A DNA stretch of 63,012 bases, counting the filler, from Candidatus Nanoarchaeia archaeon (GTDB lineage Archaea; Nanobdellota; Nanobdellia; Woesearchaeales; DATDTY01), in assembly GCA_035290625.1 (NCBI GenBank). It is 6 parts of 6 records of this genome, joined end to end, with 100 filler letters (N's around TTAATTAATTAA, not from the genome) between each part and the next. Parts side by side here need not be neighbours in the genome. Positions count along the whole stretch, not along the records: positions 1 to 15,737 come from DATDTY010000002.1; positions 15,838 to 18,048 come from DATDTY010000003.1; positions 18,149 to 22,493 come from DATDTY010000004.1; positions 22,594 to 32,340 come from DATDTY010000005.1; positions 32,441 to 57,253 come from DATDTY010000006.1; positions 57,354 to 63,012 come from DATDTY010000007.1. The stretch is one strand, 5' to 3'. Under the pieces are notes generated by a model. That model did not search any database and had not been told where the DNA came from. It saw only the letters and a program-made list of their open reading frames with translations. Of the stretch, positions 6,914-62,919 are shown piece by piece. The translations under genes and the position numbers were made by a program. Each line of letters begins with the position of its first letter. Position 1 is the stretch's first letter.

Positions 6914-7204
6914 TCAGCCCTGCGCTCCTAAAGCTTCCTTAACCCGAGCGACATCCTCATCACTCATCGGCTTCGGGGAAAGGTGCGTCTTGTCCTTGTA
7001 TGCCTCCGGCACTCCAGCATCAAGTATGTAGGGTTCCTTGAAGAGCACAGCTGATCTCTCCATCTCTGCAACGAGGGTATCTGCGTCGTTTGCAGTAAAG
7101 GTGAGGCTTCCAGCACCATTTTTCCCTTTCCTATCCCATTCCCTGTAAAAGCTAGGGCAGTCCTTTGCGTCATGCAATACGGTATACAGTAATGTATTTC
7201 CCAT
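6914..7204 (-). CDS. Hypothetical protein
   Basis: ORF; likely start MGNTLLY at 7204 with TATA-like site at about 7230; the longer ORF-track start lies inside E2. Confidence 0.55.
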   Translation of the reverse strand: MGNTLLYTVLHDAKDCPSFYREWDRKGKNGAGSLTFTANDADTLVAEMERSAVLFKEPYILDAGVPEAYKDKTHLSPKPMSDEDVARVKEALGAQG

Positions 7205-7252
7205 CAACTGCCTGAGAAACCGGATAAGAATATAAGCATTTCTCTTTTTTGG

Positions 7253-7416
7253 TGCTCCATCCAAAAAACCTCCTTTCAGTCGGGTTGCCATCAGCTCGCC
7301 TGCTTGTTGTAGGGTAAAGGTTGACATCCCCGTAGGGACATCCCCCTGTCAACAGCATTCGTTTACCAGCAGAGGCTCGCAAAATAGATGGCAACCTTCA
7401 TTTTTTGGATGGAGCT
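7253..7416 (-). mobile_element. Structured hairpin MITE-like element, copy E2
   Basis: 15-bp IR GCTCCATCCAAAAAA/TTTTTTGGATGGAGC; GGTTGCCATC/GATGGCAACC; core on + strand TTGACATCCCCGTAGGGACATCCCCCTGTCAA; only a degenerate T-rich TSD. Confidence 0.8.
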
Positions 7417-7472
7417 TCTTTTTGCGTTTATTTTCCAAAGGATTATTATACAGAAGGCGGCTTCAATGCACC

Positions 7473-8213
7473 ATGCATCTCGCCTCAAACATCTCAGCCC
7501 ATGACCTCATCATTCTCGCAGGCAGCACTCTCATCATTTCAGACATCCATATAGGGTATGAGGAATCATTGAACAGGCAGGGCGTTTTAGTCCCCCGCAT
7601 CTTTTTCAGGGAAACCATGAAGCGCCTGGAAAAAGCCATTGAAACCATTAAAAAAAACAAAAAAATAAAAAAGTTTGATGCAGTGATATTAAACGGAGAC
7701 CTAAAGGACGAATTTGGCAGGATTTCGGAGACAGAATGGAGGCACTGCCTGCGTTTTTTTGATTACCTTGCCTCGCTTTCTAAGAAAATCGTTATTGTGA
7801 AGGGCAATCACGATGCTGCTGTTCAGCCATTGGCAAGGAAGCTGAATGTTGAGCTTCTGGATTCCTTTTCATTCTCCCTTGGGAAGAAACACATCCTGGT
7901 CACTCACGGAGACGCCTTGCCTGGCCTCCCCTGCCTCAAGAAGTGTGATACACTCATCATTGGCCACATCCATCCTGCGGTGAAGATCAGGGATGCAGTG
8001 AGGTCAGAGACCTTCAAGTGCTACCTTGTAGGCAAATTCAGGAGCAAAACCCTTATCGTCCAGCCCTCATCGAACGTCGCCACAGAAGGAAGCAATGTCT
8101 TAAAGGAACACAGCAAGAGCCCTTTTCTTACCGATGCTTTTTTAAGGAGTTGTGACGTCTATGTTGTTGGAGACAAAATCCTTCCTTTTGGAAAGCTGAG
8201 GCGATTGCAATGA
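7473..8213 (+). CDS. Metallophosphoesterase (Lhr/ligase-associated type)
   Basis: SDIHIG, NGDLK, GNHD, THGD, GHIHP motifs. Confidence 0.9.
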   Translation: MHLASNISAHDLIILAGSTLIISDIHIGYEESLNRQGVLVPRIFFRETMKRLEKAIETIKKNKKIKKFDAVILNGDLKDEFGRISETEWRHCLRFFDYLASLSKKIVIVKGNHDAAVQPLARKLNVELLDSFSFSLGKKHILVTHGDALPGLPCLKKCDTLIIGHIHPAVKIRDAVRSETFKCYLVGKFRSKTLIVQPSSNVATEGSNVLKEHSKSPFLTDAFLRSCDVYVVGDKILPFGKLRRLQ

Positions 8214-8671
8214 AGTTTGGCTATGATATGCAAACAAGGGAACCCGGCGAGCTGAATCTGCTCCCTCTTGACTATCTCCTCAGGCAGAGGGACAGGCCAG
8301 TGGAGAAAGATAGTCCTTTCAGGCAAGAGCATTCTGAAGATTCCGGCTATTTTGCCCCTCACCTCGATTACATGGTCCAGAGGCTCTTGCTCATCCAGGA
8401 TCATACCATGAAAGCCTTGCGGAAGAAAAGCAGGTTTGAGCCCCCTTCCCGAACTCCAGGATTCTATGGAAGGACATGGCTTGGCTGGGATGAGATGGAG
8501 ATAAGGACAGGACTCGAGCCTTCCTTCTCCCACGAAGTGCAAACACATGAGAGCATCCACACAACAGATGAACACGAAACACGACAGCTGACTGCGTGGA
8601 TGCTGGAGGTCTCCTTCAAATACGCGTGGGGGAACCGCAACAGGATGATCAATTACGATGAGAGGTATTAG
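8210..8671 (+). CDS. Hypothetical protein
   Basis: 153-aa ORF with ATGA overlap to the upstream stop. Confidence 0.6.
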   Translation: MKFGYDMQTREPGELNLLPLDYLLRQRDRPVEKDSPFRQEHSEDSGYFAPHLDYMVQRLLLIQDHTMKALRKKSRFEPPSRTPGFYGRTWLGWDEMEIRTGLEPSFSHEVQTHESIHTTDEHETRQLTAWMLEVSFKYAWGNRNRMINYDERY

Positions 8672-8689
8672 GATCAGTACTCTCAAACT

Positions 8690-8846
8690 GGCTCATTGAA
8701 AAGCTTCGCTCCGATGGTGGCAGGTTCGCCCAGCGATGTTTTACTGCTAAGCGACATATCCCCGAATGGGACGACCCCCTTGTCGTTGTTGTGTCCTTGG
8801 CTTCAGGGGCTCACAAATGGCCGCCATCGCCATCTTCTACCGAGCT
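8690..8846 (-). mobile_element. Structured hairpin MITE-like element, copy E3
   Basis: Degenerate end IR; CGATGGTGGC/GCCGCCATCG; core GCGACATATCCCCGAATGGGACGACCCCCTTGTCG; flanks TCTCAAACT/TCTCAAAGC. Confidence 0.75.
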
Positions 8847-8891
8847 TCTCAAAGCAAGAATTTAAATAGCAGTACTGGCAAATCTTCGTCC

Positions 8892-9992
8892 ATGGACCAC
8901 ACAGAGGAAGCATATCATCAGGCAGTCGAAGTCCTCCGTCTCTGCGCCACAAAACATGGCTTTTATGCATCTCATCCTGGCTATGATGCAGTGTGGGCAA
9001 GGGACAGCATGATCACCTCGATTGGAGCCAGCCTGGTGGATGATGCCAAACTGAAAAATGCCTTTAAGCAATCGCTCCTCTTGCTTGCTAAGCATCAAAG
9101 CCCAGCTGGAGAAATTCCGAACGCTGTTGACATCTTCAGCAGGCGAAAGCCCCATGTGGACTTTTCCTCGATTGACTCAAGCCTCTGGTACATCATTGGC
9201 CACTTTATCTACCAGCAGCGGTATGGTGACAGCTCACTCATAAAAGCTGAGGCTAACTCCATTGAAAGAGCCCTGAACTGGCTTCGCTGCCAGGAAACAG
9301 GGAAAAACCACATGCTCGGCCAGCTTCCTACAACAGACTGGCAGGATGCGTTTCCGCACCGTTATGGCCATACCATAAATTCCATGGCGCTCTATTACAA
9401 AGTGCTCAACCTTGTGCAGCAGAGGAAGAGCGCCGGAATCCTCCAGCAGTCTTCCAACCACGATCCCGATGCAAGGCTGTGGAACGCCAGCTACTACCTT
9501 GCCTGGAGATGGAAGAACCACGGCTCATACAAGGAGAGAGGAGACTGGTTTGATTCCCTGGGCAATATCCTTGCAGTCCTTTTTGGACTTGCGGCTGAGC
9601 CTATGGCAAAGCGCATCCTCCGCCATATCAGGCAGCAGAGAATCAGCAAGCCCTACCCGATAAAATCCATCTATCCTCCAATCAGGAGAGGAACAAAAGA
9701 CTGGCAGGATTATTTTGATGATTGCGATGCCGGAACTCCCTATCATTACCTCAATGCAGGCATCTGGACATACATCGGCGGGCTGTATGTCACAGCTCTT
9801 GTGAAGATGAATCAGATGAATGAGGCCAGGAAGCAGCTTGCCAGTCTGGCTGAGGCAAATACGATCTCAAACTTCAGCGAATGGCTGGATGGAAATACCG
9901 GGAAGCCGTCGCGGGGAAGAAACCAGGCCTGGAATGCAGGGATGTACATCCTTGCCTATCACTCGGTCAAAGCGGGGAGAAGTCTGATATAA
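8892..9992 (+). CDS. Six-hairpin glycoside hydrolase (GH100 invertase / amylo-alpha-1,6-glucosidase-like)
   Basis: YDAVWARDS, SIDSSLW, YLNAGIW, FSEWLDG, QAWNAG; TATA at 8861. Confidence 0.85.
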   Translation: MDHTEEAYHQAVEVLRLCATKHGFYASHPGYDAVWARDSMITSIGASLVDDAKLKNAFKQSLLLLAKHQSPAGEIPNAVDIFSRRKPHVDFSSIDSSLWYIIGHFIYQQRYGDSSLIKAEANSIERALNWLRCQETGKNHMLGQLPTTDWQDAFPHRYGHTINSMALYYKVLNLVQQRKSAGILQQSSNHDPDARLWNASYYLAWRWKNHGSYKERGDWFDSLGNILAVLFGLAAEPMAKRILRHIRQQRISKPYPIKSIYPPIRRGTKDWQDYFDDCDAGTPYHYLNAGIWTYIGGLYVTALVKMNQMNEARKQLASLAEANTISNFSEWLDGNTGKPSRGRNQAWNAGMYILAYHSVKAGRSLI

Positions 9993-11157: not shown

Positions 11158-11159
11158 GG

Positions 11160-11747
11160 TCAGCTCACAAACGTCTCCACCCTGCTGCAGCTCATTGCCT
11201 CAAAGCTGCCAGGATCAAATCCATAAATCTCAGTCACAACCTTCACCTTTTCGGAGAACTCGGCCTGGGTAAGCTCTGTCCGAAGCGAGCCTTGGCCTGG
11301 AATAGGCAGATACGAGCCAGGATTCTTGGCAGCTTTCTCCTTGCCAAGAACATAGGAAAAGTAGTATATCTTCGAGCAGGTCAGCAGCTTGTCCTCAACA
11401 AGAGACTTGACTGCGGTATGGGCCTCCCGATGCCTGATGTGGCCGTATTCCCCATTTGCTCCATGCGTGAATATATAATCATACGTTATCTCTTGCAAAG
11501 CTTCTGTTATCGCTGACTTGACATCTTCAATCTTGATCGGATGAAGGGCAGTGTCCTCTAGATCAGAGATAAGTGAATGCGCACGATACCTCTCACACAC
11601 CTTCCTAAATTTAGGAAACCTGTCGGAATCACTCTTCCTGCAGAGAGAAAGGATCGTCCATTCCCATTTCCTATTCCTCAAGATTGTCCCACCCATCCAA
11701 ATCGTCTCGTCATCTGGATGCGCCACAACAACAAGCGCCTTTGTCAT
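11160..11747 (-). CDS. PIG-L/LmbE-family N-acetylglucosaminyl deacetylase
   Basis: AHPDDE and GEYGHIRH motifs. Confidence 0.9.
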   Translation of the reverse strand: MTKALVVVAHPDDETIWMGGTILRNRKWEWTILSLCRKSDSDRFPKFRKVCERYRAHSLISDLEDTALHPIKIEDVKSAITEALQEITYDYIFTHGANGEYGHIRHREAHTAVKSLVEDKLLTCSKIYYFSYVLGKEKAAKNPGSYLPIPGQGSLRTELTQAEFSEKVKVVTEIYGFDPGSFEAMSCSRVETFVS

Positions 11748-11794
11748 ATCACTGCATTTGCTCCAAACATTCTGTTATATAAATGTTGTGCTTG

Positions 11795-11997
11795 GGCGCT
11801 GCTGAAATCTGATGCAGTGCCCATGTGTGAGGTCACTATTCCGGAGAATGAGCATCGACAAGGGGGTCGTCCCATCGGAGGATATGTCGATATATTCTTA
11901 AACGAACTGAGACCGAGCTGCTCCGAAGGAGCGACCAAAAATACAAAGCATTTTTGAGTACCGGCACTGCCGCGAAGCGAAGGATTTCAGCAGAGCC
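11795..11997 (+). mobile_element. Structured hairpin MITE-like element, copy E4
   Basis: GGCGCTGCTGAAATC/GATTTCAGCAGAGCC; GCAGTGCC/GGCACTGC; core ATCGACAAGGGGGTCGTCCCATCGGAGGATATGTCGAT; 5-bp DR GCTTG. Confidence 0.82.
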
Positions 11998-12040
11998 GCT
12001 TGCGAATCCAGAGAAAGACATCCTTCGCCGCAGCCAGCGG

Positions 12041-12694
12041 TCAATCCTTCCCGTCCCATTCGTTGGAGAATCTAGTTAAGAACTGTTCCATGAACTTGTG
12101 TCTCTCTCCCGCAATTCTTTTCGCAGTTTCTGTATTCATCAAATCTCTGAGAAGAAGCAATTTTTCATAGAAATGGTTAATCGTTGGTCCTTTGCTATTC
12201 TTGTATTTTTCAAAAGAATCACGCACTTCAGGTTTAATATGGGGGTTGTAAATTTCTCGTCCCATATGCCCACCATACGCGAAGGTTCTGGCTATCCCAA
12301 TCGCACCAATAGCATCTAATCTATCTGCATCTTGCACAACCATTCCTTCTGTGGTGTGCATTTGTGTTCTAACTCCCGCACCTTTGAAAGACATCCCCTT
12401 TATAATCTCGCAAACATGAGAGATATTCTTTTCTTCAACTTGTAATTTTTGAAGCCATTCCCTTGCTAATCTTGGGCCAACATCATCATTTCCATCATTG
12501 AATTTCCAATCAGAAATGTCATGAAGTAATGCAGCAAGTTGAACTACAAATAAGTCTACTTTCTCATGTTCGCCGATATGAATAGCATTTTTCCAAACAC
12601 GATAAACATGCCACCAGTCATGGCCAGAACCTTCGCCAGATAGCTTATTTTTTATATATTCCTCAGTTTGTTTCAAAATTGCCTCTTTGTCCAT
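12041..12694 (-). CDS. HD-domain phosphohydrolase (YedJ/YpgQ-like)
   Basis: GHDWWHVYRV, ALLHDI, VQDADRLDAIGAIG, HFYEKLL. Confidence 0.92.
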   Translation of the reverse strand: MDKEAILKQTEEYIKNKLSGEGSGHDWWHVYRVWKNAIHIGEHEKVDLFVVQLAALLHDISDWKFNDGNDDVGPRLAREWLQKLQVEEKNISHVCEIIKGMSFKGAGVRTQMHTTEGMVVQDADRLDAIGAIGIARTFAYGGHMGREIYNPHIKPEVRDSFEKYKNSKGPTINHFYEKLLLLRDLMNTETAKRIAGERHKFMEQFLTRFSNEWDGKD

Positions 12695-12740
12695 ACTCAA
12701 GGATTGAACCTTGCAGAATTTAAAAAGATTTCTAAAGGCA

Positions 12741-12905
12741 GGAGGCGTTGAAAAGATATGCAGCGCCTTCCTGTGAGCCATAGTCATCAGGAGAATGCGC
12801 AGCGACAAGGGAGTTGCCCCCTTCGGGGAATGTCGCTTTTCTGACCGAATAGCTCATGGCGAACTTGGCGCTGCCGAGCGGAGCGAGCAACTTTTCAATG
12901 CCACC
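12741..12905 (+). mobile_element. Structured hairpin MITE-like element, copy E5
   Basis: GGAGGCGTTGAAAAG/CTTTTCAATGCCACC; GCAGCGCC/GGCGCTGC; core GCGACAAGGGAGTTGCCCCCTTCGGGGAATGTCGC; TSD TAAAGGCA (12733-12740/12906-12913). Confidence 0.88.
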
Positions 12906-12941
12906 TAAAGGCAGGAGGCGGCATGCGCAAAACAACTTGCC

Positions 12942-13751: not shown

Positions 13752-13817
13752 GCTTAGCTCCGGGTCAGCCAGCTATATAAATTATTCGGAGAGCTCAGAG
13801 GAATTCAGGATTCGTGC

Positions 13818-13983
13818 GTGTGCGGTGAAAATCATTGCTGCCGCCCTTTGTGAGCAACAGGGCAAGAACAATAACATCGACCTCGGGGGGAGGTCCCTTA
13901 CGGGGCGAATGTCGATTTGTAGAAGAATTTTTCAGTCATTGCGAACTCGGCGGCAGCTGCGAAGCAAGATTTTCACCGGAGAT
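13818..13983 (+). mobile_element. Structured hairpin MITE-like element, copy E6
   Basis: CGGTGAAAATC/GATTTTCACCG; GCTGCCGCC/GGCGGCAGC; core ATCGAC..GGGGGAGGTCCCTTACGGGG..GTCGAT; TSD GATTCGTGC (13809-13817/13984-13992). Confidence 0.88.
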
Positions 13984-14030
13984 GATTCGTGCGTAATCTA
14001 TTTAAACGCTCTCATCTTGCTCACGGCAGC

Positions 14031-14483
14031 ATGGCCGATTGTATATTTTGTAAAATTATCAAAGGAGAGATCGATTCAGCGAAGATTTGGGAAGATGAAA
14101 ACTTTCTGGCAATCCTCGATATCATGCCCAACACAAAAGGAATGGCATTAGTCTTGACTAAAAAACATTTTGATTCTTACGCTTTTGATATGCCGGAAGA
14201 GGAATATGGAAAATTCATGTCTGCATCAAGGAAAGTTGCTGGAATCCTCGAGAAGGGCTTAGATGTAACGCGGGTTGCCATGGTGATGGAGGGGATGGGG
14301 GTGAACCATGCTCACACGAAGTTATATCCTCTGCACGGAGTTAAAGCAAAGTTTAAGGAAATATGGGCGCAAGATAAGATATTCTTTGATGCATACGAGG
14401 GGTACATCAGCACGCAAACGGGTGAAAAAGCAGACATGAACGAATTGAAAAAATTAGCAGAGGCGATTAAGCAGAATCAATAG
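14031..14483 (+). CDS. HIT-family hydrolase
   Basis: DCIFCKII start; degenerate triad HAHTKLYP. Confidence 0.88.
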   Translation: MADCIFCKIIKGEIDSAKIWEDENFLAILDIMPNTKGMALVLTKKHFDSYAFDMPEEEYGKFMSASRKVAGILEKGLDVTRVAMVMEGMGVNHAHTKLYPLHGVKAKFKEIWAQDKIFFDAYEGYISTQTGEKADMNELKKLAEAIKQNQ

Positions 14484-14540
14484 CCTGAATTGAGCGTGCT
14501 TCTTTGGTATACAGGATCTCAACTCCACCAAAGACAACCA

Positions 14541-15272
14541 TCAACGCAGCAGCCTTGCTGCCTCTTTATCCGCAATCCAGGTGCAGTTTGAATGCTCTCG
14601 AAGAATCGTCGCAGGTATTTTCTCAGAAACTGGGCTGAAGAGGACCTTCCTCAGAATCCCCGCCTTTCTTTTTCCGGAAACAATAACGATAACCTCTCTT
14701 GCAAGCATTCCGGTGCCAAGTCCTGTGGTAACTGCAAAGGCCGGAGTTTCTATTCCTGTAAGCTGTTGATTCACCTCCTTTGTACCTTTATTGATCCTGA
14801 CCAGCCTTGTCCTGCTTCTGAATGAGGAGCCGGGAAAGTTGAATCCAAATGTGTGGCAGTCCTCTCCGATTGCATCAAGGCAGAGGTCTATGCCCCCCTG
14901 CTTCCTGATCAAGGCATCATAAGTTCCAGGATGCCGGATATTCCTCACAGCAGGGAAATAGCTTTTTGCTTTAACTTGCCTGAAGAGCCGATCATGCATA
15001 TAGTTACGGTAGCTTGCGGGATGCTTCCTCGAGATCAGCCTTTTCCCTTTGCAATATTCATCCATATTCCAGAATGTCGCTTGACTGAAGAGATTTCTGT
15101 GTTTTCTCAGGATTGCGTAGACACCCTCAGGAGTTGTTCCTGTAGGAACCAGGATACTGAGCGCCGGATTGCGCTTAACGGCTTTAAGAATCCTTGCAGC
15201 AGCAAGCCTGCTCATCTCATTGTAATCTTTTGCTATCACAATCCTGGCTCCATTGATCATGCGCGCCTGCAT
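14541..15272 (-). CDS. nagB: Glucosamine-6-phosphate deaminase
   Basis: PTGTTP, NMDEY, GGIDL, GFNFPGS, IPATILREH. Confidence 0.88.
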   Translation of the reverse strand: MQARMINGARIVIAKDYNEMSRLAAARILKAVKRNPALSILVPTGTTPEGVYAILRKHRNLFSQATFWNMDEYCKGKRLISRKHPASYRNYMHDRLFRQVKAKSYFPAVRNIRHPGTYDALIRKQGGIDLCLDAIGEDCHTFGFNFPGSSFRSRTRLVRINKGTKEVNQQLTGIETPAFAVTTGLGTGMLAREVIVIVSGKRKAGILRKVLFSPVSEKIPATILREHSNCTWIADKEAARLLR

Positions 15273-15316
15273 ATCTTACCTCTCGTATCGCAGGTTTAAA
15301 AATGTGGCGGTCATAA

Positions 15317-15518
15317 GGCTGCGGTGAAACTCAATGCTGCCGCCTCTTTGCGAGGCTCTTGAGGATTGCCATAGACTGAGTTGAGGGGGTTGGCCCCTTC
15401 GGGGCTTCAACGGTGCCTACAGAAGGACGGCGCAAGCCGAGCCGGGCGGCAGCCGGTGGCTTGTGAGCGAGTGAGAACGAGCTCACTCGCAAGCCACTGC
15501 GATATTTTCACCGCAGCC
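15317..15518 (+). mobile_element. Structured hairpin MITE-like element, copy E7
   Basis: 13-bp IR GGCTGCGGTGAAA/TTTCACCGCAGCC; GCTGCCGCC/GGCGGCAGC; core GTTGAGGGGGTTGGCCCCTTCGGGGCTTCAAC; TSD GGTCATAA (15309-15316/15519-15526). Confidence 0.88.
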
Positions 15519-15599: not shown

Positions 15600-15737
15600 T
15601 GTGCTATCCTGAAAGTATTTCCCTTCGATAGCTTAATTCGTTTCATGTTTATTAAGCCTCCTTTTTCATCTTCCTGACAAATGCCTGCTCTGGAGTTTCC
15701 AGAATCTCGAAGCGTAAGCTTCGATGCGGTCTTACCT
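15600..15737 (-). mobile_element. IS481-like insertion sequence, right end with transposase C-terminus (cut by contig end)
   Basis: Starts TGT; minus frame VRPHRSLRFEILETPEQAFVRKMKKEA* (RPHxSL..TP integrase-core tail, stop 15652-15654); identical copy at 57115-57252. Confidence 0.75.
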
Positions 15738-16286: not shown

Positions 16287-16318
16287 ATTTAAATATTTCT
16301 GAAGTTTTTAAGGAGAGT

Positions 16319-16965: not shown

Positions 16966-16979
16966 GATATCCCTCTTCC

Positions 16980-17261
16980 CCCTACGACTTCAAAGTCGAC
17001 TGGCTCTTAATCAAAGGCCCTCAAGTAAATCCAGAAGGCTCTGATCGATTAAGCCTCTCTGACCTCAACCTAGATGCAGAAGTGGACAGCATTGATGCTC
17101 ATTTGTTCGCAGACAAGTTTGCTAGAGGAGAGGCCAACCAGAGCGACCTTCTTGTATTTATCGAAGAGTTCCAGAGAAGGAATCCTGAAGACCAAGCAAC
17201 ATTGGCAGTTCTCCAAGCATTGAGGACAAGCAGTGTTGAGGATTGGGAAGGGTATAGGTAG
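16980..17261 (+). repeat. Start-less 93-codon gene 3'-end fragment with dockerin/EF-hand-like motif (copy B)
   Basis: PYDFKVDW...DLNLDAEVDSIDAHLF...WEGYR*; direct repeat of 17852-18048. Confidence 0.85.
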
Positions 17262-17834: not shown

Positions 17835-17851
17835 GATTTTGATAATCGACC

Positions 17852-18048
17852 CCCTACGACTTCAAAGTCGACTGGCTCTTAATCAAAGGCCCTCAGGTCA
17901 ATCCAGAAGGCTCAGACTTGCTAAGCCTCTCTGACCTCAACCTAGATGCAGAGGTGGACAGCATTGATGCTCATCTCTTCGCAGACAAGGTTGCAAGAGG
18001 CGAGGCCAACCAGAGCGACCTTCTTGTTTTCATTGAAGAGTTCCAGAG
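17852..18048 (+). repeat. Dockerin-like 3'-end repeat (copy C, cut by gap)
   Basis: Near-identical to 16980-17176; differences mostly synonymous. Confidence 0.85.
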
Positions 18049-41209: not shown

Positions 41210-41354
41210 TGCTCAGTAGAAAGTCATACGGCATCGAGCTCGCTTGCGCTTCCTTCACTGTTTGCTGACACCCCCGAAGGGGCCTACCCTCTGTCAGCAG
41301 TGTCGTTAAAGCTGAAGAAGCTCGCAAAAATGATGCCGGACTTTCTACTGAGCT
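41210..41354 (-). mobile_element. Structured hairpin MITE-like element, copy E8 (minimal form)
   Basis: 15-bp IR GCTCAGTAGAAAGTC/GACTTTCTACTGAGC; CGGCATC/GATGCCG; core GCTGACACCCCCGAAGGGGCCTACCCTCTGTCAGC; TSD GAGGGCAGC within a 14-bp DR TGAGGGCAGCTGCT; lies between convergent genes. Confidence 0.9.
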
Positions 41355-46659: not shown

Positions 46660-49600
46660 TCATTCTACGATGAGGATCTTGTGCTTTACCCGTCGGGAGT
46701 CGCCATTGCCAAGGCTGATTCGCGCAAGGTATTCTCCTGGAAGAGCGTCGTCGGGAACAGGCACTTCCACCATAGCTGAGACCGTGTCGTCTGAATCCAC
46801 TCGGTCAAATCCTGTTGAGCTGAAGACTCCCAATTCAGGAATCACAACTTTCAGAGAGGGTGACTTAAGGTCAGTCTCTCCATGATTCGTAAGTTTTGAC
46901 CACACCTGCAAACTCTCGCCGGGGCTTGCTATTCCGTCGTTCAGGAGCCTTACGCCTCCCCAATAGATTTGTTTGCGTGGGTTGATTTCCCGGGTTATTG
47001 TGGATGGCGGCTGCGGTGAAGGGACAGGAGCAGCTATTGCGGTTATTGTTATTGATGAGGTTGCGCTGTCAACTGCGCCGTCATTTACCTTTGCCCGAAT
47101 CGTTTTTGGCCCTGCTGTTGTATACTGGGCGGCAATGGTGTTGAAACCGCCAAGGTTTCTGAATCCCTGGCCGTCACCCAAGTCAAAGAAGTATGCAAGG
47201 GCATTCCCGTCTGGATCTGACGCAATTGCTGTAATTGCGTGGACTGTTCCTGTAGGGCCTGACTGCGGGACTGCTGTTAGTGATGTTATGACAGGAGCAC
47301 GATTTTGGCCTTGCCCTGTAACTGTAATTGCAAGTGTTGCCTGCTGGCTATCTACCCTTCCATCATTCACTTTCGCCCTGATGGTGTAGGATCCTGGAAC
47401 TGTAAATTGGGCTGAAATTGAGGAAGACGCTCCGTTGTTCCTGAATCCCTGGCCGTCTGCGAGATCGATAAAGTAGGTTAAAGCATTTGCGTCAGGATCG
47501 CTTGCTGTTATTGTGAATGTGAATGTTGAGCCTGCTGGCGCAGACAGTTGGTTTGCCGTAAAGCCTGTAATTACAGGTGGATTGTTTGGCTGCACAGGAG
47601 GCTGGACTGGAGGTTGGACTGGAGGTTGGACAGGTGGCTGAATGGGCGGTTGGACTGGAGGTTGGACAGGTGGCTGCTGAGGCGGTTGTTGCCCACTTGG
47701 TGCATTAACTCTAATGCGGATAGTATCTGAGGATGTCCTTCCAGACTCTGTCTCTCTGGCAACGACAGTTATAAGATGTTCGCCTTGAGGAAGCTGGACA
47801 GCAATCGCTCTCTCGTTTCGATTGAGATTGATGAGGTTGTCAAACCAGGAGAGTGTGAACTGGACACCTTCAGGATCTGTGACTTGTGATTCGATGGTTA
47901 TCGTGTCTGTCGTGAGGAATGAAGCTCCATCAGGGGGAGAGATTATCCTTACAGTAAGAGCCGAGGTATCTGTACCAGGAGTTCCTGGAAATCCGCCATT
48001 GATCAGGATTGTTACTGAAGCCTGGCCCCTATTGCTATCTCGGTCTGTAACTGTTGCTGTGTAGGTCAATGTAGCCGGGAAGTTCCAGAATTGTTCAAGT
48101 TCAGATCCAATTCCTCTGAATTGATTAGCATGCTGGACCGGGCCTGTTGGCAAAAGGATGTTTCCTGTGCTCGTCCAGGTGATCTGGCTTGAAAGCTCGC
48201 CTTCCTGCGGGTCTGTTGCAGATGCCCTGAAGAGAACTCTTTGCATAGCTGATGCTGCAGAACTGGATCCAAACACCGCAGCATTTGCCGGCGAAAGAAT
48301 AGTTACAACAGGAGTTTGGCTTGGCTCTCGAATGATATGGGTAACAACGGCAGGAGCACTCCAGGTTTCATCAAGGCCTTTCACAGCCATGCGCAGCTCA
48401 TAATAGCCTGGCTGGTTGAATTGTATCACAGGCTCTGCATCAAACCATACTGGACGCAGAACTCCTGCAGTGTTTCTTGCCTGATTGACAAGCGATTGAT
48501 CTTCTCTTGCGTTTGTTACTGAGCCAAGAGGAGCGAAGTCAAAGATAGGATTGCCCTGACTGTCTTCGCCTGTCTTAATGAAGACTGCAACGCGCTTTCC
48601 TGCAATCGGCTGATTATTTGCTTCGAGGAATGTAATTGGAGGAGTTCTGTAGCCAACGGTCTTTCTTATGATATCTCCTGCGTTATGGGAGGTAAGCCGG
48701 ACAGCGAGAGGCTGAGTTCCTGGAATGGGGGTTACTATAACTGTAAAAGAGACGGGAGTTGCCCAGTCTTTGTCGCGGATGCCGATTGGAGTCTCTGTAA
48801 CTGAAAATTCAACCCGGTAAGTTCCTGCAGTAGGGAATTGCAATGAAGGTGTGCGCTCAAAGGATTGCGTGATGAGCTGGCTATCTCTAAAGACTTGGGT
48901 TCTGAAGCCTGTAACATCTCCTGGCCTGCTTCCCTGGCCTGCGACAGTGATAATGCTGTTTTGCTGGATGGTTGTTGTTGATCCCGCTTGAGGCTGCTGT
49001 AATCGGGCTGTGAGCGGCTCGATTGATGGGATGCTGCTTGCTTCTACAAAAACAGTTATTCTTTTGATTGCTGAGCCTCCTCTGCTGTCTGAAGCTCTTA
49101 TCTCGATTCCATCATATCTTCCAGCCTGGTTGTTTGCAGGAGCCCAGTAAAAGACACCAGTTGTTGGGTCAAGCCTTGCACCTGGGAGTCCGGATAGCTC
49201 GTAGGTAATTCTATCATTGTCTGCATCAAAAGCAGTAAGGGTAAATGTCCTTGGCTGGTTTACCCGGAAAAGGAGCGAACTTGGAATTGCCTGCTGTCCG
49301 TTAAATGCATTGGATAAGAACAGAGGAACTGCATTGACATTGACGAAAATACTTGCTGGCTGGCTCCACTCGCCCTGGGCATTCTTCACTGAAAAGCGAA
49401 TTTCATAAGTTCCTGATCTCCTGAATTGGAGGGTTGGAGAGCGGTCAAACCAGATTGGCTGGAGTAGGCCTGCGCTGTTTACTGCCTGGCGGGCAGCAGA
49501 GTTGAAATTTTCAACATCAGCCAAATTTGCCAGGCTTCCAGACCTAAACACAGCCCAGCGGTATCCTTTTGCTGCATCAGCTGGCTCGCTTCTTCCATGG

Positions 49601-55260: not shown

Positions 55261-55332
55261 GCGAGTTTTTCGTAAGATGATTAAGGATTCGGTTACACAA
55301 GTAATTATACGGGTTAGTTTTAATTATAAATG

Positions 55333-56445
55333 TTAGTTCTTGCCAAGGAATTTTCCAACAGCCCCCATCACATCATCAACACTAATGTCTTTCATGCAGT
55401 CAATGCCTGGATAGGGCCGTTTATAGGATCCTTCATAAATCTTGATGAATGGGTATCCTGGAGCTGGCTTGAACAAAGAGATGCTCCTTGGCCCATAGGG
55501 GCCAAAAATGACCGGGCTCTCTGGGCCGTAAAGACCTATTGTGGGGATGGCCTGCGATGCTCCTAGATGAACAGGTCCAGTGTCATTTGAGATGATAAGG
55601 GAGCACTGGTCAACAAAGGCTATTGTCTGGCCAAGCTTAAACCCGCAGGTATGCCAGGTTGTATGAGGAATCGTCTTCTGGATAGACTCAATCAGTGCTT
55701 GCTCCTCCTTTACTCCAATAAAAACAATATCCATGTTGGAATGCTCAATAAGAGTCTTTGCAATTTCAGCGAATCTCTCAGCTTTCCATCTCCTTTCAGG
55801 GACAGCAGGCCCAGAGCCAGGGCAGATGCCAACAATCTTCTTGGTTATGCGGTTCCTTGCTATGAATGCTTTGACAAATGAGACAGATTCTTCCGAAGTT
55901 GCGATCCTCACGAGGCTGTCATCAACATCTCCATTTCCCAACGGCTTGACAAACTCCAGATTATTCAGCAATGCGTGTTTCTCTGGGTCAAATATGACAC
56001 TTTGTGAATAAAGCCTGGCCCTCCTCTTCAGATTCCCAAAGCCGATCCGGAAGGGAGCGGCGACATATGAAAATATGCATGAGATCATCAGCCAGTGCTC
56101 GAAATCAAGGCAGAGGTCAAATTTGCCCACTATTGCCCGAAAGCATCTGAAAAGGCTCTTCATGTCCAGATCAACAAAAATGAGATTATCAATATCGGGG
56201 TTTGAATAGAACAAGTCCTTATTCTTCTCTGGAGCCAATACCGTTATCCTGCTTCCCGGGATTCTTTTTTTTATCTCACGAATGCATGGCAGGACATAGA
56301 TGTTTGATCCAATGCCCCAGAACATAATCACCAGGATACGAGGATATTCAGGTATCTTGGCTTTCCTTCTTGGGATCTTTGCAAGAATGGAAGTAAGGAA
56401 GCTCCCCACATACCTGTCTATACGTTTAATCATATCATAGCGCAT
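55333..56445 (-). CDS. Glycosyltransferase family 9 (heptosyltransferase-like)
   Basis: ICPGS..ERRW, ISNDTGPVHLG, GLYGP. Confidence 0.92.
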   Translation of the reverse strand: MRYDMIKRIDRYVGSFLTSILAKIPRRKAKIPEYPRILVIMFWGIGSNIYVLPCIREIKKRIPGSRITVLAPEKNKDLFYSNPDIDNLIFVDLDMKSLFRCFRAIVGKFDLCLDFEHWLMISCIFSYVAAPFRIGFGNLKRRARLYSQSVIFDPEKHALLNNLEFVKPLGNGDVDDSLVRIATSEESVSFVKAFIARNRITKKIVGICPGSGPAVPERRWKAERFAEIAKTLIEHSNMDIVFIGVKEEQALIESIQKTIPHTTWHTCGFKLGQTIAFVDQCSLIISNDTGPVHLGASQAIPTIGLYGPESPVIFGPYGPRSISLFKPAPGYPFIKIYEGSYKRPYPGIDCMKDISVDDVMGAVGKFLGKN

Positions 56446-56490
56446 TTGCCTGCAGAACTAGCCTGGTCTTTTAAATCTTATTTCTTTTGA

Positions 56491-56731
56491 GGTTCAGTAG
56501 CAAGTCAATCGGCAGTGGCTTGCAAGCGAGCAAGGCGAGCTTGCTCGCTAGCCACCGGCTCGCTTGTGCCTGCAGCTGCGATTGCTGACATCCCCGAAGG
56601 TGCTAAAAAGAGCCATGCTCTTTTGGCACACCAAAACGCCCGATGGCGTTTTGATTGAGGCAACCCTCTGTCAGCCCAGCTTATGATTGTGAGGAAGCTC
56701 GCTGAAAGGGTGCCAGACTTGCTACTGAGCC
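56491..56731 (-). mobile_element. Structured hairpin MITE-like element, copy E9 (241 bp, two extra modules)
   Basis: GGTTCAGTAGCAAGTC/GACTTGCTACTGAGCC; TSD TTCTTTTGA/TTCTTTTGG; colinear with E11. Confidence 0.9.
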
Positions 56732-57063
56732 TTCTTTTGGACGCTTTCAAATGCAGTTTTTCTTACAATCTCCTCAAGCTTCCTCTGGTTTTGGCGAACC
56801 AAGGCATAGGTATAAAACAGGGATCCTATGAGGAACATGAAGCCTGCAATGATATAAAAATCAAGCGGCCGCTGGAGCGCAATGATGTCTACAACAAAGC
56901 CGCTGAGGGCTGTTGGGAAGAGTGTGATAAGAATAAAAAATATCCATAAGAACATCCAGGCAAGGTACTCTTTATTGGTAAAATGGCTGCGCTTTTTGTT
57001 AAGAAATGCCAAGTACATCATGAACATTGCGAACAACACGCCAAGTATCTGGACTCCGAGCAT
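56722..57063 (-). CDS. DUF2304-family membrane protein
   Basis: Three TM helices, FP..RPLD, KLEEIVRK; stop codon lies inside E9. Confidence 0.85.
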   Translation of the reverse strand: MLGVQILGVLFAMFMMYLAFLNKKRSHFTNKEYLAWMFLWIFFILITLFPTALSGFVVDIIALQRPLDFYIIAGFMFLIGSLFYTYALVRQNQRKLEEIVRKTAFESVQKKAQ

Positions 57064-57114
57064 AGCCTTCAGGCTTTTGTGGAATTTTTTAAATGTATCG
57101 GTTAGAACAACTAC

Positions 57115-57253
57115 TGTGCTATCCTGAAAGTATTTCCCTTCGATAGCTTAATTCGTTTCATGTTTATTAAGCCTCCTTTTTCATCTTCCTGACAAATGCC
57201 TGCTCTGGAGTTTCCAGAATCTCGAAGCGTAAGCTTCGATGCGGTCTTACCTC
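57115..57253 (-). mobile_element. IS481-like right end, second copy (cut by contig end)
   Basis: Identical to 15600-15737; transposase stop at 57167-57169. Confidence 0.75.
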
Positions 57254-57353
57254 NNNNNNNNNNNNNNNNNNNNNNNNNNNNNNNNNNNNNNNNNNNNTTA
57301 ATTAATTAANNNNNNNNNNNNNNNNNNNNNNNNNNNNNNNNNNNNNNNNNNNN

Positions 57354-57495
57354 ATCCTGCCAAGTCAGCGATTTCCTGTTGTGTTTTCCCTTGGTTTGCC
57401 CACTTAAGGACAAGTTCGCGTGTTTGAAGGTTTAACATGCAAACAAGAAAACACAGATACTATATAAACTATGCGTTATTTTTGTCTTATACTAG
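57354..57495 (-). mobile_element. Probable IS left end with HTH transposase N-terminus (IS630-like)
   Basis: Minus ORF from 57438 MLNLQTRELVLKWANQGKTQQEIADLAG into the gap; candidate terminus ...GTCTTATACTAG. Confidence 0.45.
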
Positions 57496-57548
57496 TTGGG
57501 CGGCAAAAACCATAACACTAATAAATCCCCCTAAAAAACACTCCCGTT

Positions 57549-58619: not shown

Positions 58620-58663
58620 ATTCTTGTAAGACACTTTTTCCGCTTTGAGCCCGATTGATGGCC

Positions 58664-60880: not shown

Positions 60881-60923
60881 TGAGGAAGTTCTTTATAAAA
60901 CCTCTGTTTTGGAACTCTGTTTT

Positions 60924-61086
60924 GGCTCGGGTGAAAATGAAGGCCGCATCATCCGTGAGCCTTCTTTACAAAAAGATACCACAACGACAAGGGGGATGTC
61001 CCTGACGGGGATATGTCGCTCCTTGCTCACATACGCACAAGGCGAACTCGATGCTGCCCGAACGAAGCGAGATTTTCACCAGAGCC
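60924..61086 (+). mobile_element. Structured hairpin MITE-like element, copy E10
   Basis: GGCTCGGGTGAAAAT/ATTTTCACCAGAGCC; GCATC/GATGC; core CGACAAGGGGGATGTCCCTGACGGGGATATGTCG; DR TTTTGGCT overlapping the left end. Confidence 0.85.
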
Positions 61087-61108
61087 TTTTGGCTGTGCAT
61101 CAGACTTT

Positions 61109-62140
61109 TCAGCTCAGGCTGTCTTTCTCATGGATCAGCTCGTGGACCAGCTCGTCAATGTCGCAGGAGACTGCTGCGATGCGCTTGTCTGCTGCGCCAT
61201 AGTAGATGTACAGCCTGCCGTCAAACCTTGCAGTCCCTGTCGGGAACACCACGTTCGGGACATTCCCTTTTTTTTCCCACTCCTTCTCCGGAGAAAATAA
61301 GGGATGCTTGAGATGGCCTATGACCTTTGTTGGGTCTTTCTTGTCAAGCAGGGCTGCCCCCGCCCTGTAGATCCTGCCTTTGTCCATGTCGTCCACACCG
61401 TGGTAAATCAGGAGCCATCCCTTTTCTGTCTCGATAGGCGGGCAGCCTCCTCCGATGTTCCTGACCTCATACCAATACTCTGATTCGAGGACAACATACC
61501 TGCTCAGATTCCTGAGGTAGGCCTTCCAGTAGCTTGGGGTGAGGTCGCTGAATTTCCTAAAATAAATGACCTGGATATCAGGGAGTATTCTGTGAAGAAG
61601 CGCATACCTGCCATTGATCTTTCGCGGGAAGAGGATGCCGTCTTTTTCCCAGAGAAGGACATTCTTCCCGACAATATCCTTGAAATAAGATTCGAAGAGG
61701 AAGTAGCGCTCCTTAAGGCCGTTGCACTGCCTGAAAAGATCCTCTGCCTTATCGTAGGTGAGCTCAGGGGAGAGCACTCCCATCTTTTGCCACGTCATAA
61801 GGTCCTTGCTTGCAGCGCATGCAATCCGGCAATTCTTCTTATCATAGGCAGCATAGGTCATATAATATGTTCCATCGATGTGGACTATCCGGGGGTCTTC
61901 AATGCTATACTCGGACCTTCCTGAAGATGTTAGAACCGGCTTTTTCATCCGCTCAATAACCCTGAGGGGGCCATCGAGCCTGCAGTATCCTATCGTCGAG
62001 CGGTTTTGGGTGTTCCAAGCCCTGTAGAACATATGCAGGTGGTTCCCTTTCTGGGCAACCGCAGGGTTAAAGACTCCCTTGTTCTCAAAGGGGAGGCTTG
62101 TCGGGCTGAGAATAATTCCATGGCGCCGAATATGAACCAT
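61109..62140 (-). CDS. GH130/PH1107-like glycosidase or phosphorylase
   Basis: GVFNPA, EDPRI, KDGILFP..ALLHRI, LIYHGV, NVVFPTG, YYGAAD. Confidence 0.92.
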   Translation of the reverse strand: MVHIRRHGIILSPTSLPFENKGVFNPAVAQKGNHLHMFYRAWNTQNRSTIGYCRLDGPLRVIERMKKPVLTSSGRSEYSIEDPRIVHIDGTYYMTYAAYDKKNCRIACAASKDLMTWQKMGVLSPELTYDKAEDLFRQCNGLKERYFLFESYFKDIVGKNVLLWEKDGILFPRKINGRYALLHRILPDIQVIYFRKFSDLTPSYWKAYLRNLSRYVVLESEYWYEVRNIGGGCPPIETEKGWLLIYHGVDDMDKGRIYRAGAALLDKKDPTKVIGHLKHPLFSPEKEWEKKGNVPNVVFPTGTARFDGRLYIYYGAADKRIAAVSCDIDELVHELIHEKDSLS

Positions 62141-62336
62141 GGCCTGTTTTTGGGTTGTTTGTTTATAAAGGTTTGGATGAAGGCAGCCAAGACCCGATTG
62201 CCGGAGTTCATGGATTGGAACCCTGATTGAAGCTGGCCGAAGGCAGCATTCCTCTCGAAGTATCGTCAAGAGAATACAAAAATATATAAATGACATCTGC
62301 TCAGACACCATTAGTACCTAAAAGGGGGGTAAAACA

Positions 62337-62579
62337 ATGGCAAAAGTTATTGCAAAGACAGGAGTCAAGAGAGTAAAGGGATACCTTTATTTCTTGGATA
62401 AGAAGGGAGATGTCGCTCGGGTCCAGATGGCGCGGGCAGGCAAGAAGACCTCAAAGAAGCAGGAGGTTGTTGCCAAGGCAGGCATCAAGAGGAAGCCGGG
62501 CTGCCTCTACTTTATTGACAAGCGCGGGGATGTCTGCGAAGCCCAGATGGCCCGAGGCGGAAGAAAGAAGAAGAGGTAA
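62337..62579 (+). CDS. Small basic protein with an internal tandem duplication
   Basis: VIAKTGVKRVKGYLYFLDKKGDV..QMAR and VVAKAGIKRKPGCLYFIDKRGDV..QMAR. Confidence 0.85.
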   Translation: MAKVIAKTGVKRVKGYLYFLDKKGDVARVQMARAGKKTSKKQEVVAKAGIKRKPGCLYFIDKRGDVCEAQMARGGRKKKR

Positions 62580-62580
62580 G

Positions 62581-62620
62581 TTTTTCTATTTTTTTTTTCT
62601 TATTTTTTTGCTAAATTTTT
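62581..62620 (+). terminator. Oligo-T archaeal terminator
   Basis: Several long T runs directly after the stop codon. Confidence 0.6.
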
Positions 62621-62635
62621 GCCACACTTGGATTC

Positions 62636-62876
62636 GGCTCAGTAGAAAGTCATACGGCAGTGGCTTGCAAGCGAGCAAGGTGAGCTTGCTCGCTAGCCGC
62701 CGGCTCGCTTGTGAGGGTATATGTGATTGCTGACACCCCCGAAGGTGCTAAAAAGAGCTACGCTCTTTTGGCACACCAAAACGCCAGAGGGCGTTTTGAT
62801 TGGGGCAACCCTCCGTCAGCAGTGCTGATGAAACTGAAGAAGCTCGCAGAAATGATGCCGGACTTTGTACTGAGCC
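62636..62876 (-). mobile_element. Structured hairpin MITE-like element, copy E11 (241 bp)
   Basis: GGCTCAGTAGAAAGTC/GACTTTGTACTGAGCC; perfect 9-bp TSD CTTGGATTC (62627-62635/62877-62885). Confidence 0.92.
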
Positions 62877-62919
62877 CTTGGATTCATAATCTTTATAAAT
62901 CAGCGCAGGGTTTTGTGGC

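Follow-up and report, generated by a model that had tools for sequence, protein, structure and literature searches.

The closest described systems are bacterial. The TnGBS ICEs, the ISLre2 family and the ISKra4 group carry p-MULT 3/4 Mutator-like transposases and are DDE elements whose insertions lie upstream of a housekeeping promoter element, the sigma-A -35 box, at a fixed distance (15–17 bp); contact with the initiation complex has been proposed for them, and the ISKra4 group, which has symmetric ends, inserts in both orientations (PMC3942029, available part). For the archaeal ISH6, the same part of that paper mentions no more than a duplicated AT-rich motif. In yeast, the insertion of Ty3 is base-exact and harmless to the gene, and it is determined by TBP together with a factor of the TFIIB family (TFIIIB: TBP, Brf1; bioRxiv 2021.07.27.453949, available part). 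The target choice of archaeal ISs is largely open. The words “promoter”, “TATA” and “target” are absent from the main text of a 2026 survey of these elements (PMC13343696), and we found no description of promoter-guided transposon insertion in archaea in the literature. The elements analysed here resemble the bacterial ones in their fixed distance, their use of both orientations and the initiation-complex contact that we propose below; they differ in that the promoter element is BRE-TATA and the enzymes are of the IS5, IS6 and IS481 types.

Elements and promoters in the window

The window is a 63,012-nucleotide stretch made up of six contigs, with N linkers between them, from a small groundwater archaeon (genome of 1.37 Mb, ~85% coding DNA). 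A sequence-only reading had listed eleven hairpin elements in it, E1–E11, and all were found at about the positions given there. They are MITEs, with 15-bp TIRs and 8–9-bp target duplications (TSDs), and their type is probably IS5. Promoters were predicted with a BRE-TATA weight matrix, for which 402 promoters of the same genome that stand apart from elements served as the training set, and genes (1364) with a home-made caller. An offset is the distance separating the end of an element from the first base of its best-scoring BRE-TATA site; distances to start codons begin at the box's first base.

E5 (12741..12905, family C; perfect 8-bp TSD) has a single-rod fold (z -3.68), and its TATA box (12719..12726, minus strand; offset 14, 8+6) stands 32 nt before the ATG at 12694 of an HD-domain protein. 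The box of E7 (15317..15518, family B; perfect 8-bp TSD) lies at 15295..15302 (minus strand; offset 14, 8+6), 30 nt before the ATG at 15272. E6 (13818..13983, family B) and E11 (62636..62876, family A) have perfect 9-bp TSDs and offsets of 15 (9+6). The box of E6 (13999..14006, plus strand) precedes the ATG of a HIT protein at 14031 by 32 nt, and divergent promoters stand on either side of this element (offsets 15 and 36); the box of E11 (62892..62899, plus strand) scores 15.4, with no ATG in the 90 nt downstream of it. E9 (56491..56731, family A; TSD 8/9) likewise has an offset of 15 (9+6), with its box at 56468..56475 (minus strand), 30 nt before the ATG at 56445 of a glycosyltransferase 9. 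E3 (8690..8846), a degenerate MITE with unlike ends and a 7/9 TSD, has its box at 8861..8868 (plus strand; offset 14), 31 nt before the ATG at 8892 of a glycoside hydrolase.

The outlying offsets fit the same layout if small changes in the TSD copies are allowed for. E4 (11795..11997) has a left TSD copy reduced to 5 of 9 bases, and its box (11776..11783, minus strand; 36 nt before the called start at 11747, PIG-L family) has an offset of 11, to which the four lost bases would add up to 15. E2 (7253..7416, family E) has a T-rich TSD whose left copy is one T longer; the additional T in the T run would account for the offset of 16 to its box (7229..7236, minus strand; score 8.3), 32 nt before the ATG at 7204. 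A local duplication altered the left TSD copy of E10 (60924..61086, family B), whose box (60892..60899, minus strand) is at offset 24 and was presumably at 15 beforehand. The gaps of E3, E4, E5, E7, E9 and E11 are exactly those of the sequence-only reading; it had also recognized the boxes of E2, E6 and E10, although the matrix puts their gaps at 16, 15 and 24 rather than 17, 17 and 23. For E6, the difference is one of register. The placement of the boxes 20–27 nt before the start codons in the sequence-only reading holds as well: for E2, E3, E5, E6, E7, E9 and E10, the codon comes 22–24 nt after the 8-nt box, or 30–32 nt from its first base. Finally, E1 (174..370, family D; right end degenerate, TSD gone) and E8 (41210..41354, family A; perfect 9-bp TSD, flanked by convergent gene ends) had been named as exceptions, and neither has a BRE-TATA site or a promoter at the fixed offset.

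Two IS481-like copies are cut by contig breaks in the window. The right end of one (15600..15737, minus strand) is the side far from the promoter; at its other end, on contig C69, a TATA box stands at 21 (15+6). The right end of the second (57115..57253, minus strand), absent from the earlier list, adjoins a 14-bp target duplication (57101..57114; partner on contig C49) and a TATA box at 57086..57093 (minus strand; offset 21, 14+7), 30 nt before the ATG at 57063 of a DUF2304 gene.

Across the genome, the MITE catalogue holds 115 paired-TIR elements of 136–298 nt, each internally similar to others, multi-copy and free of a transposase gene; E3 and E4 lie outside it. Perfect 8- or 9-bp TSDs occur in 38 of the 115, and many others have one or two changes. 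Entries M041 and M101 have one flank in common. Element orientation, which the sequence-only reading took to be independent of the gene, is mixed (by TIR family: A 10:8, B 8:7, C 9:6, E 2:2, D 4:0). The TIR ends are alike, not equal, to those of the IS5-like element of the same assembly; close matches are found in IS5-like elements of genomes G150, G232, G144, G263 and G219, and relatives in the order combine 9-bp TSDs with ends resembling those of MITE families A, B, F and L.

Three transposases were found in the genome, of the IS5, IS6 and IS481 types. The IS5-like enzyme (284 aa) scores 98.9 bits against NF033579 (E 3.6e-28; family cut-off 140), a profile matched over its cut-off in 22 of 301 genomes of the order. 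Its predicted structure (pLDDT 72.5) has Tn5 as the best fold match (Z 10.1, next 7.4; rmsd 4.4 over 223 aligned residues), and the model is thus of an IS4-superfamily (Tn5-like) DDE fold. The IS6 element (915 bp, GG ends) encodes a 266-aa transposase with an InsA-type zinc ribbon at its N-terminus (NF033587, 126.7 bits vs. a cut-off of 125), and its TSD is 9 bp in three paired copies and at L015, L016 and L054; the usual family value is 8 bp. The IS481-like element has TGT...ACA ends, TSDs of 14–16 bp in seven paired copies and a ~290-aa rve-type enzyme (NF033577, 119.2 bits; cut-off 224, reached in none of the five genomes searched). Of Mutator-like profiles, PF00872 had no match in this genome, nor did PF06782 in a search that ran without a working control.

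The fixed point of insertion

A BRE-TATA promoter starts 14–16 nt from one end in 72 of 114 scored MITEs, as against 1.5% of 170,287 safe intergenic positions. When best sites within offsets 7–24 are considered, 77 of 93 fall at 14–16, and the harmless offsets 7–13 and 17–24 are nearly empty; the counts are 44 at 15, 14 at 16 and 2 at 17. TATA hexamers around 229 element ends start 110 times at offsets 13–19 and twice at 0–12. The pattern also appears without a TATA model: the distance from element end to start codon peaks at 44–47 nt (57/112). Because hexamers genome-wide peak 28–32 nt upstream of 1331 called starts, the predicted boxes stand where this genome's promoters stand. Inward-pointing sites within 30 nt are mostly outward boxes read in reverse (8/10 overlap a strong outward box, score at least 9.8), which places the insertions on the BRE side. 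Promoter-side matches number 82, against 640 predicted promoters, and the targeted promoters do not outscore the remaining run of promoters (p 0.39). Of the 115 MITEs, 41 have no site of score 8 at 13–17, and nine of these are flanked by convergent gene ends.

Distances upstream of TATA are therefore near-fixed, as the sequence-only reading had claimed, but it had measured from the element end, and the true constant is the promoter-side TSD edge, which ends 5–7 bases upstream of the TATA box whatever the TSD length. In the 38 MITEs with perfect TSDs, 8-bp duplications go with offset 14 (13/18) and 9-bp duplications with offset 15 (14/20; Fisher p 1.8e-6). The TSD ends at the BRE upstream edge, and the layout is [element][TSD][5–7 bp with BRE][TATA box][gene ~30 nt on], with the element in either orientation. 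The promoter is required on one side only, for the MITEs and for the IS5-like, IS6 and IS481-like elements of the same genome. In the young IS6 element (ends 100% identical), the hexamer is at 14, 14, 14 and 16 in four of four copies. All seven TSD-paired IS481-like copies comply: six have offsets of 20, 21 (four times) and 22 for TSDs of 14, 15 (four times) and 16 bp, and the seventh has a 14-bp TSD and offset 21, so that the offset is TSD+6 in 6/7 and TSD+7 in one.

Similar spacings recur in other archaeal genomes. IS5-like elements stand at 14–16 in 10/10 copies examined in G219 and at 15 in 4/4 full copies in G157. Of the IS481-like ends in other genomes, 40/127 fall at 20–23, compared to 0.66 in shuffles, three Methanothrix copies among them. 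One group stands 10 bp further out (offsets 31, 31 and 32 with 15-bp TSDs; 290-residue enzyme). The placement is element-specific: of 70 ends at 35 control loci in methanogen genomes (IS630, IS1634, 3-bp-TSD), one reaches the score. In a well-supported clade of ten IS481-like elements, mostly from methanogens, the scored site is absent in eight. The matrix derives from this genome, which makes both misses and controls in methanogens weak.

Explanations of the placement

We consider it probable that the transpososome docks against promoter-bound TFB-TBP. Short IS5-type DDE transposases would act in trans to move the MITEs. Under standard DDE chemistry with 5' staggered attack, the promoter-side edge of the TSD would mark the template-strand cut, just upstream of the BRE, and this cut would be the work of the element end that comes to lie on the side away from the promoter; the second cut of the IS481-like element would float by 1–2 bp. 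The ruler would be the TFB-TBP complex on BRE-TATA, approached on its upstream face, either through a contact to TFB or TBP or through capture of DNA that the complex bends and exposes, with each transposase group keeping its own spacing to it. In Pyrococcus, the BRE starts 6 nt upstream of the TATA box (PMC6640164, available part); the TSD ends coincide with that start, which we count toward docking. Because the TSD is copied, the gene retains its BRE, its TATA box and 8–16 further native bases, and this copying would make the landing site safe in a gene-dense genome. Docking would require the trait in each of three transposase groups, drawn from two DDE superfamilies. This speaks against it, as do the clade in which eight of ten IS481-like elements have no scored site, the 41 MITEs without one, the ordinary scores of the targeted promoters and a Methanoregula group described below; in addition, only insertions that survived are visible.

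The main rival, which we regard as unlikely, is direct read-out: the transposases would recognize the sequence or bendability of BRE-TATA on bare DNA (a flexible TA run together with an A-tract 2–4 bp past the cut), and promoters would just happen to be their most suitable targets. DDE complexes commonly bend their target (PMC10045372, available part), the spacing is similar (5–7 bp) among unrelated enzymes, and stronger promoters are not favoured. In a Methanoregula IS481-like group, moreover, the A-tract at +17 to +19 is symmetric: on either side alike, A/T occurs at +17 in 0.88 and at +18 in 0.97 of the 33 ends. Only 8/33 ends have a promoter-like site at 21–22; this looks like a sequence preference of the enzyme itself, matched by the BRE by chance. 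In our genome, by contrast, the far flank is flat in the MITEs and IS481-like copies. Across 48 MITEs, A occupies positions 2 and 3 beyond the TSD at frequencies of 0.81 and 0.98 on the promoter side vs. 0.27 and 0.23 on the far side, a one-sided preference unlike a symmetric dimer's own. The TSDs show ordinary promoter composition only; where a box is palindromic, insertions lie on its BRE side alone, though selection could mask any use of the other; and the group at 31, 31 and 32 lies far out for a 290-residue enzyme to read.

A passive window is improbable: histones would cover most of the DNA and the pre-initiation complex the core promoter, and insertion would fall at the first free upstream base with no specific contact. 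Several families do share nearly the same edge, and insertions never interrupt a BRE or TATA box. Such a window should nevertheless leave an upstream tail; instead the counts break off at 17, in wide intervals as well. The spacing also varies by family (5, 6–7 and 16), and the control families show no edge in the same methanogen genomes.

Purifying selection acting on random insertions in short intergenic regions, the alternative raised by the sequence-only reading, is most improbable. It accords with the 112 of 114 MITEs that lie outside called genes and core promoters, and one safe interval in four is at most 20 nt long. We reconstructed the empty intergenic space, sparing genes and core promoters, and placed each element at random in its own safe interval. 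This null expects 10.1 matches, and 71/112 were observed; for intervals of at least 40 nt, 2.1 were expected and 31/61 observed. The distances are thus readily distinguished from random placement, and this conditional null refutes the reading unless the gene calls are grossly wrong. Selection cannot produce an offset tied to TSD length, and identical IS copies, which are young, are placed with the same exactness as the old MITEs. Because the observed counts lie so far above the null, promoter-anchored insertion is supported; the earlier suggestion had further named the TBP-TFB complex or bent promoter DNA as the guide, a choice that we infer. Archaeal activators require fixed spacing upstream of the BRE, and positive selection might retain only copies whose ends serve as activator sites at such a spacing, but this is just as improbable, given that the targeted elements comprise no fewer than ten unlike TIR sequences, occur in both orientations and include autonomous elements, and that the TSD, not the TIR, sets the spacing.

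The placement, far more exact than chance plus selection allows, points to promoter-guided insertion. A base-exact rule common to three DDE families would explain more than 115 MITEs in so small and densely coding a genome, would provide a clue to the length variation of IS481-type TSDs (one cut fixed, one floating), and would allow the promoters of uncultured archaea to be mapped from IS and MITE positions. More tentatively, and with the balance somewhat against it, the TFB-TBP complex may be a general landing pad, to which IS5-, IS6- and IS481-type transposases of many archaea each learned to bind, with one strand transfer fixed at the BRE upstream edge, TSDs of 8 to 16 bp and group spacings differing by up to a helical turn (6 vs. 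16 bp). If so, this would be a prokaryotic, possibly older, form of TFIIB-family-guided integration; the scars left by ISs and MITEs would mark promoters of uncultured archaea to the base; and the same habit may persist in the eukaryotic IS481EU elements, whose branch stands next to archaeal IS481.

Comparison with known systems

By their enzymes, the elements resemble described families without matching them fully. The IS5-like transposase falls under the family cut-off, and we found no description of promoter targeting by the IS5 family in the literature. The IS481-like element shares its TGT...ACA ends, ~15-bp variable TSDs and ~290-aa rve-type enzyme with the archaeal ISMac4 and ISA0963-1 and with IS481EU, although its profile score is under the cut-off (119 vs. 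224); the available part of PMC10045372 gives TSDs of 2–15 bp for the family and ~15 bp for archaeal members, and does not mention promoter anchoring. The IS6 element has the GG tips of the archaeal IS6/IS26 clades and an enzyme above the family cut-off, but differs in its 9-bp TSD and zinc ribbon; one archaeal IS6 member with a 9-bp TSD is listed in the available part of PMC6807381. The available parts of PMC7986276 and PMC6807381 deal with hybrid promoters and with IS-targeted cointegration rather than with insertion upstream of TATA boxes, and the word TATA has no occurrence in the latter. A subgroup of the IS1202 family, with IS481-related enzymes, inserts a few bases (5 bp) from protein-bound XerC sites, but at bacterial dif sites, in one orientation and with longer elements (PMC10132070 and bioRxiv 2022.12.17.520857, available parts).

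With the base-exact rule, the evolution of safe-harbour targeting can be compared across these elements, Ty3 and ISLre2. Ty3, however, is an LTR retroelement that uses its integrase CTD and chromodomain as tethers and serves Pol III genes only (bioRxiv 2021.07.27.453949, available part), and it lands in the interval from the TATA box to the start site, whereas the TIR DNA elements here land upstream of the BRE. The system thus works like ISLre2/ISKra4/TnGBS and like yeast Ty3, and is a member of neither.

Placement of the MITEs relative to promoters

The genome comprises 1.37 Mb in 84 contigs (the window being C2–C7, joined by N linkers) and is contained in public DNA runs from groundwater and soil metagenomes; the named nearest relatives of its TFB, which with TBP binds archaeal promoters, are mostly labelled Woesearchaeota or Nanoarchaeia. 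A search for inverted ends on stretches of 90–500 nt with a flanking 8–10-bp direct repeat returned 55 rows. Seeding on the ends of these rows gave 115 non-overlapping elements of 136–298 nt in about eleven terminal-inverted-repeat (TIR) families, a catalogue that is incomplete: it lacks E3, E4, two more families and those copies that a contig end truncates. All 115 have internal similarity to other members, and the catalogued hairpin elements are MITEs (short elements with TIRs and no transposase). Their target-site duplications (TSDs) measure 8 bp in family C and 9 bp in most other families.

An internal hairpin core is common to MITEs whose TIRs differ, and most MITEs form long rod folds; E5 (window 12741–12905) folds as a single rod (z −3.68). 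Their lengths are stepped at about 145, 165, 200 and 240 nt through modular inserts. E11 had no match among 30 genomes of the order, and an Rfam scan of the window yielded one tRNA and nothing else. The window also holds a 199-nt repeat in contig C3 (two copies, 91%; 16978–17176 and 17850–18048) and a 12-nt coding tandem repeat at 47575–47694, proline-rich on the minus strand.

Genes were called with a home-made caller (1364 genes). Genome-wide, the TATA hexamer peaks 28–32 nt upstream of called start codons; boxes at about 30 nt imply mostly leaderless transcripts. A BRE-TATA matrix (score threshold 8) was built from 402 of 1222 upstream regions that lie away from elements. It comprises a TATA box with a purine at −6 upstream and A at both −4 and −3. 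It agrees with the Pyrococcus BRE at −36 to −32 and TATA at −30, as given in the available part of PMC6640164.

When the hexamer was sought outward from 229 element ends, it began at offsets 13–19 in 110 cases and at 0–12 in two. The best matrix sites numbered 19 at offset 14, 44 at 15 and 14 at 16, followed by 2, 3, 1 and 1. A called start lay 29–33 nt beyond the box at 52 of 82 fixed-offset sites, and the element-to-start-codon distance, which makes no use of a TATA model, peaked at 45. The sequence-only reading had proposed a near-fixed distance to the TATA box in the window, with E1 and E8 as exceptions; matrix scoring reproduced its values within 0–2 nt, and neither exception fitted the fixed offset.

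The same reading called for a comparison with random placement in reconstructed empty intergenic space. With elements removed, safe positions were defined as those at which an insertion would leave called genes, tRNAs and core promoters (from BRE to start) intact. A predicted promoter stood at 14–16 for 72 of 114 elements (one of the 115 sits at a contig start), vs. 1.5% of 170,287 safe positions. When each element was compared with the safe interval in which it lies, 71 of 112 hit vs. 10.1 expected (z 21), two further elements having fallen inside called genes. Safe intervals of at least 40 nt gave 31 of 61 hits vs. 2.1 expected, and within offsets 7–24, 77 of 93 sites occupied three of the eighteen offsets. 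Promoter-anchored placement is real and strong, and is a form of promoter-targeted transposition.

What is constant, however, is the TSD edge and not the element end, so that the proposed fixed distance stands with its reference point moved. Among 38 MITEs with perfect TSDs, six of them without a site, the offset was 14 in 13 of 18 with 8 bp and 15 in 14 of 20 with 9 bp (Fisher p 1.8e-6). Since the offset grows with TSD length, the TSD stops 6 bp short of the box, where the BRE has its upstream edge. The signal is also one-sided: in 48 MITEs, A at positions 2/3 beyond the TSD had frequencies of 0.81/0.98 on the promoter side vs. a flat 0.27/0.23 on the far side, and 8 of 10 inward-pointing sites overlapped a strong outward box, read in reverse.

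Autonomous elements and their relatives

Autonomous elements were uncovered through contig ends. The IS481-like element (954 bp) has two ends inside the window, at 15600 and 57115. Seven copies have ends paired by exact 14–16-bp TSDs, and all seven have a predicted promoter, which stands at TSD+6 for six copies and at TSD+7 for the seventh; it faces the right end in four and the left in three. The sole fully assembled copy (L044, C24:15370–16323) carries a frame break near the transposase gene start, where contig-end copies are in frame. The IS6 element (915 bp, ends 100% identical, 9-bp TSD) showed a TATA hexamer at 14, 14, 14 and 16 in four of four copies, most of the 30 loci in this search being without accepted ends. 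A 32-bp element at C67:39801–39832 is nothing more than a pair of IS6 ends; a TATA hexamer stands at its offset 16. The IS5-like element (967 bp, 8-bp TSD) had offset 14 at four of eight ends (one a variant) and 16 at one; two of the three remaining ends are far sides of paired copies. Its three MITE derivatives had less regular offsets.

At C1:28540–28911, C25:1–294, C33:22096–22252, C67:1–295 and C30:15139–15498, elements from different families are nested in or abut one another at a single promoter, which marks these promoters as reused hot spots.

In this order, 103 of the 301 genomes carry IS5-like elements. In a survey accepting 14 of 30 loci (16 lacked accepted ends), 8 of 26 accepted ends had offset 15; a site lay at 14–16 in 10 of 10 copies examined in G219 (11 listed) and at 15 in four of four full copies in G157. 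The ends of several relatives closely resemble those of MITE families A, B, F and L. On the strength of these matching end sequences and the offsets in relatives, IS5-type enzymes are the likely movers of the MITEs. The IS6 element, whose ends some MITE ends resemble, was dropped as the candidate partner because IS5-like elements have matching ends; a PF01609 match on C61 was rejected for its unrelated ends and 7-bp TSD. IS1634-like L001 (C61:203–1840, 7-bp TSD) is unlike the rest of the genome in sequence style, and its contig is possibly foreign. Profile searches of the genome with PF13737 and PF00872 gave no match, nor did PF06782, in a search that lacked a working control; Foldseek gave none at E 0.001.

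IS6 relatives gave six ends at 14, including this genome's own site (L051), and two at 13 among 28 (22 of 38 loci lacked accepted ends). IS481-like relatives were found in DPANN, Thermoplasmata, methanogen and Nitrososphaerota bins; 40 of 127 distinct ends lay at 20–23 vs. 0.66 in shuffles, after removal of two duplicated pairs and this genome's own copy (53 of 110 loci lacked accepted ends). Three Methanothrix copies had offsets of 22–23, and a plasmid search found one haloarchaeal IS481. In a tree of the IS481-like elements built from 48 of the 49 rows (L292 omitted), the 20–24 label is scattered: it changes 12 times vs. 15.2 in shuffles, 27 of 500 of which reached a value that low, and a single origin of the placement thus cannot be claimed. 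The unpublished genomes G120, G131 and G207 underlie none of the conclusions drawn here.

Exceptions and element groups without the offset

No strong site at 13–17 was present in 41 of the 115 MITEs. Several of these have weak sites at 14–15, shifted TSDs or nested insertions, and nine lie between convergent genes: E8 (window 41210–41354) and eight other catalogue entries. Three of this minority class have weak TATA-like runs at 15–16, perhaps antisense promoters. The promoters that are targeted are no stronger than the rest.

A hairpin-ended repeat with eight matches in this genome, which we take to be IS200/IS605, has no promoter site at any. Two presumably IS630-like ends had offsets of 24 and 14. 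The end of a presumably IS630-like element that opens contig C7 (window 57354–57493) is shared with C83, with no common promoter offset. Among control elements in three methanogen genomes, one of 70 ends reached score 8, although negative calls in other genomes are weakened by a matrix derived from this one. These loci comprise 7 copies with 3-bp TSDs and, by what we assume to be their subgroups beyond the Pfam match, 4 IS1634-like, 22 IS630-like and 2 ill-defined.

Ten members of a mostly methanogen IS481-like clade included eight without a site. In Methanoregula (G303, L388–L417), an A-tract occupies +17 to +19 on either side of nearly all 33 IS481-like ends, and only 8 of 33 have a promoter-like site. 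The tract is symmetric, 2–4 bp past the TSD. The element has 54 end matches in the genome; several ends have lost their TSD partners, which suggests rearrangement between copies. A second IS481-like group in G157 (L418–L430, 15-bp TSDs) had three strong sites among 13 ends, at 31, 31 and 32; weaker ones lay at 30, 30 and 31, about one helical turn past the usual 21–22.

Possible mechanisms and known systems

What is observed is a one-sided geometry that depends on TSD length and is limited to some element groups. By the established chemistry of DDE enzymes, we presume that the fixed TSD edge reflects a template-strand cut between −7 and −6. TFB–TBP bound to BRE-TATA probably serves as the ruler for insertion. 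Alternatively, the transposase may read promoter DNA directly, a possibility that we regard as doubtful. When the IS5-like transposase was modelled in complex with the TFB core and TBP of this genome, the prediction scored 0.00 in two runs whose controls were not folded, and it counts neither way. A passive chromatin window at promoters is quite unlikely to have set the position. Selection alone, acting in short intergenic regions, is a highly improbable source of the excess within safe intervals, and equally so the retention of copies as activator sites.

None of the public runs listed with this genome is RNA. In contigs of four of 20 DNA runs, which drop rare alleles, no joint skipping a whole element appeared among the rows shown.

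Our literature search, mostly outside subscription journals, turned up no description of insertion anchored to the BRE/TATA in archaea, and the accessible portions of PMC7986276, PMC6807381, PMC13343696, PMC11602168 and PMC10045372 contain no such rule. Promoter-targeted insertion by TnGBS/ISLre2/ISKra4, as described in the available text of PMC3942029, works alike, but through a Mutator enzyme, for which the PF00872 search of this genome found no counterpart. By the consulted part of bioRxiv 2021.07.27.453949, Ty3 also works alike; unlike Ty3 as portrayed there, the elements of this genome land upstream of the BRE.
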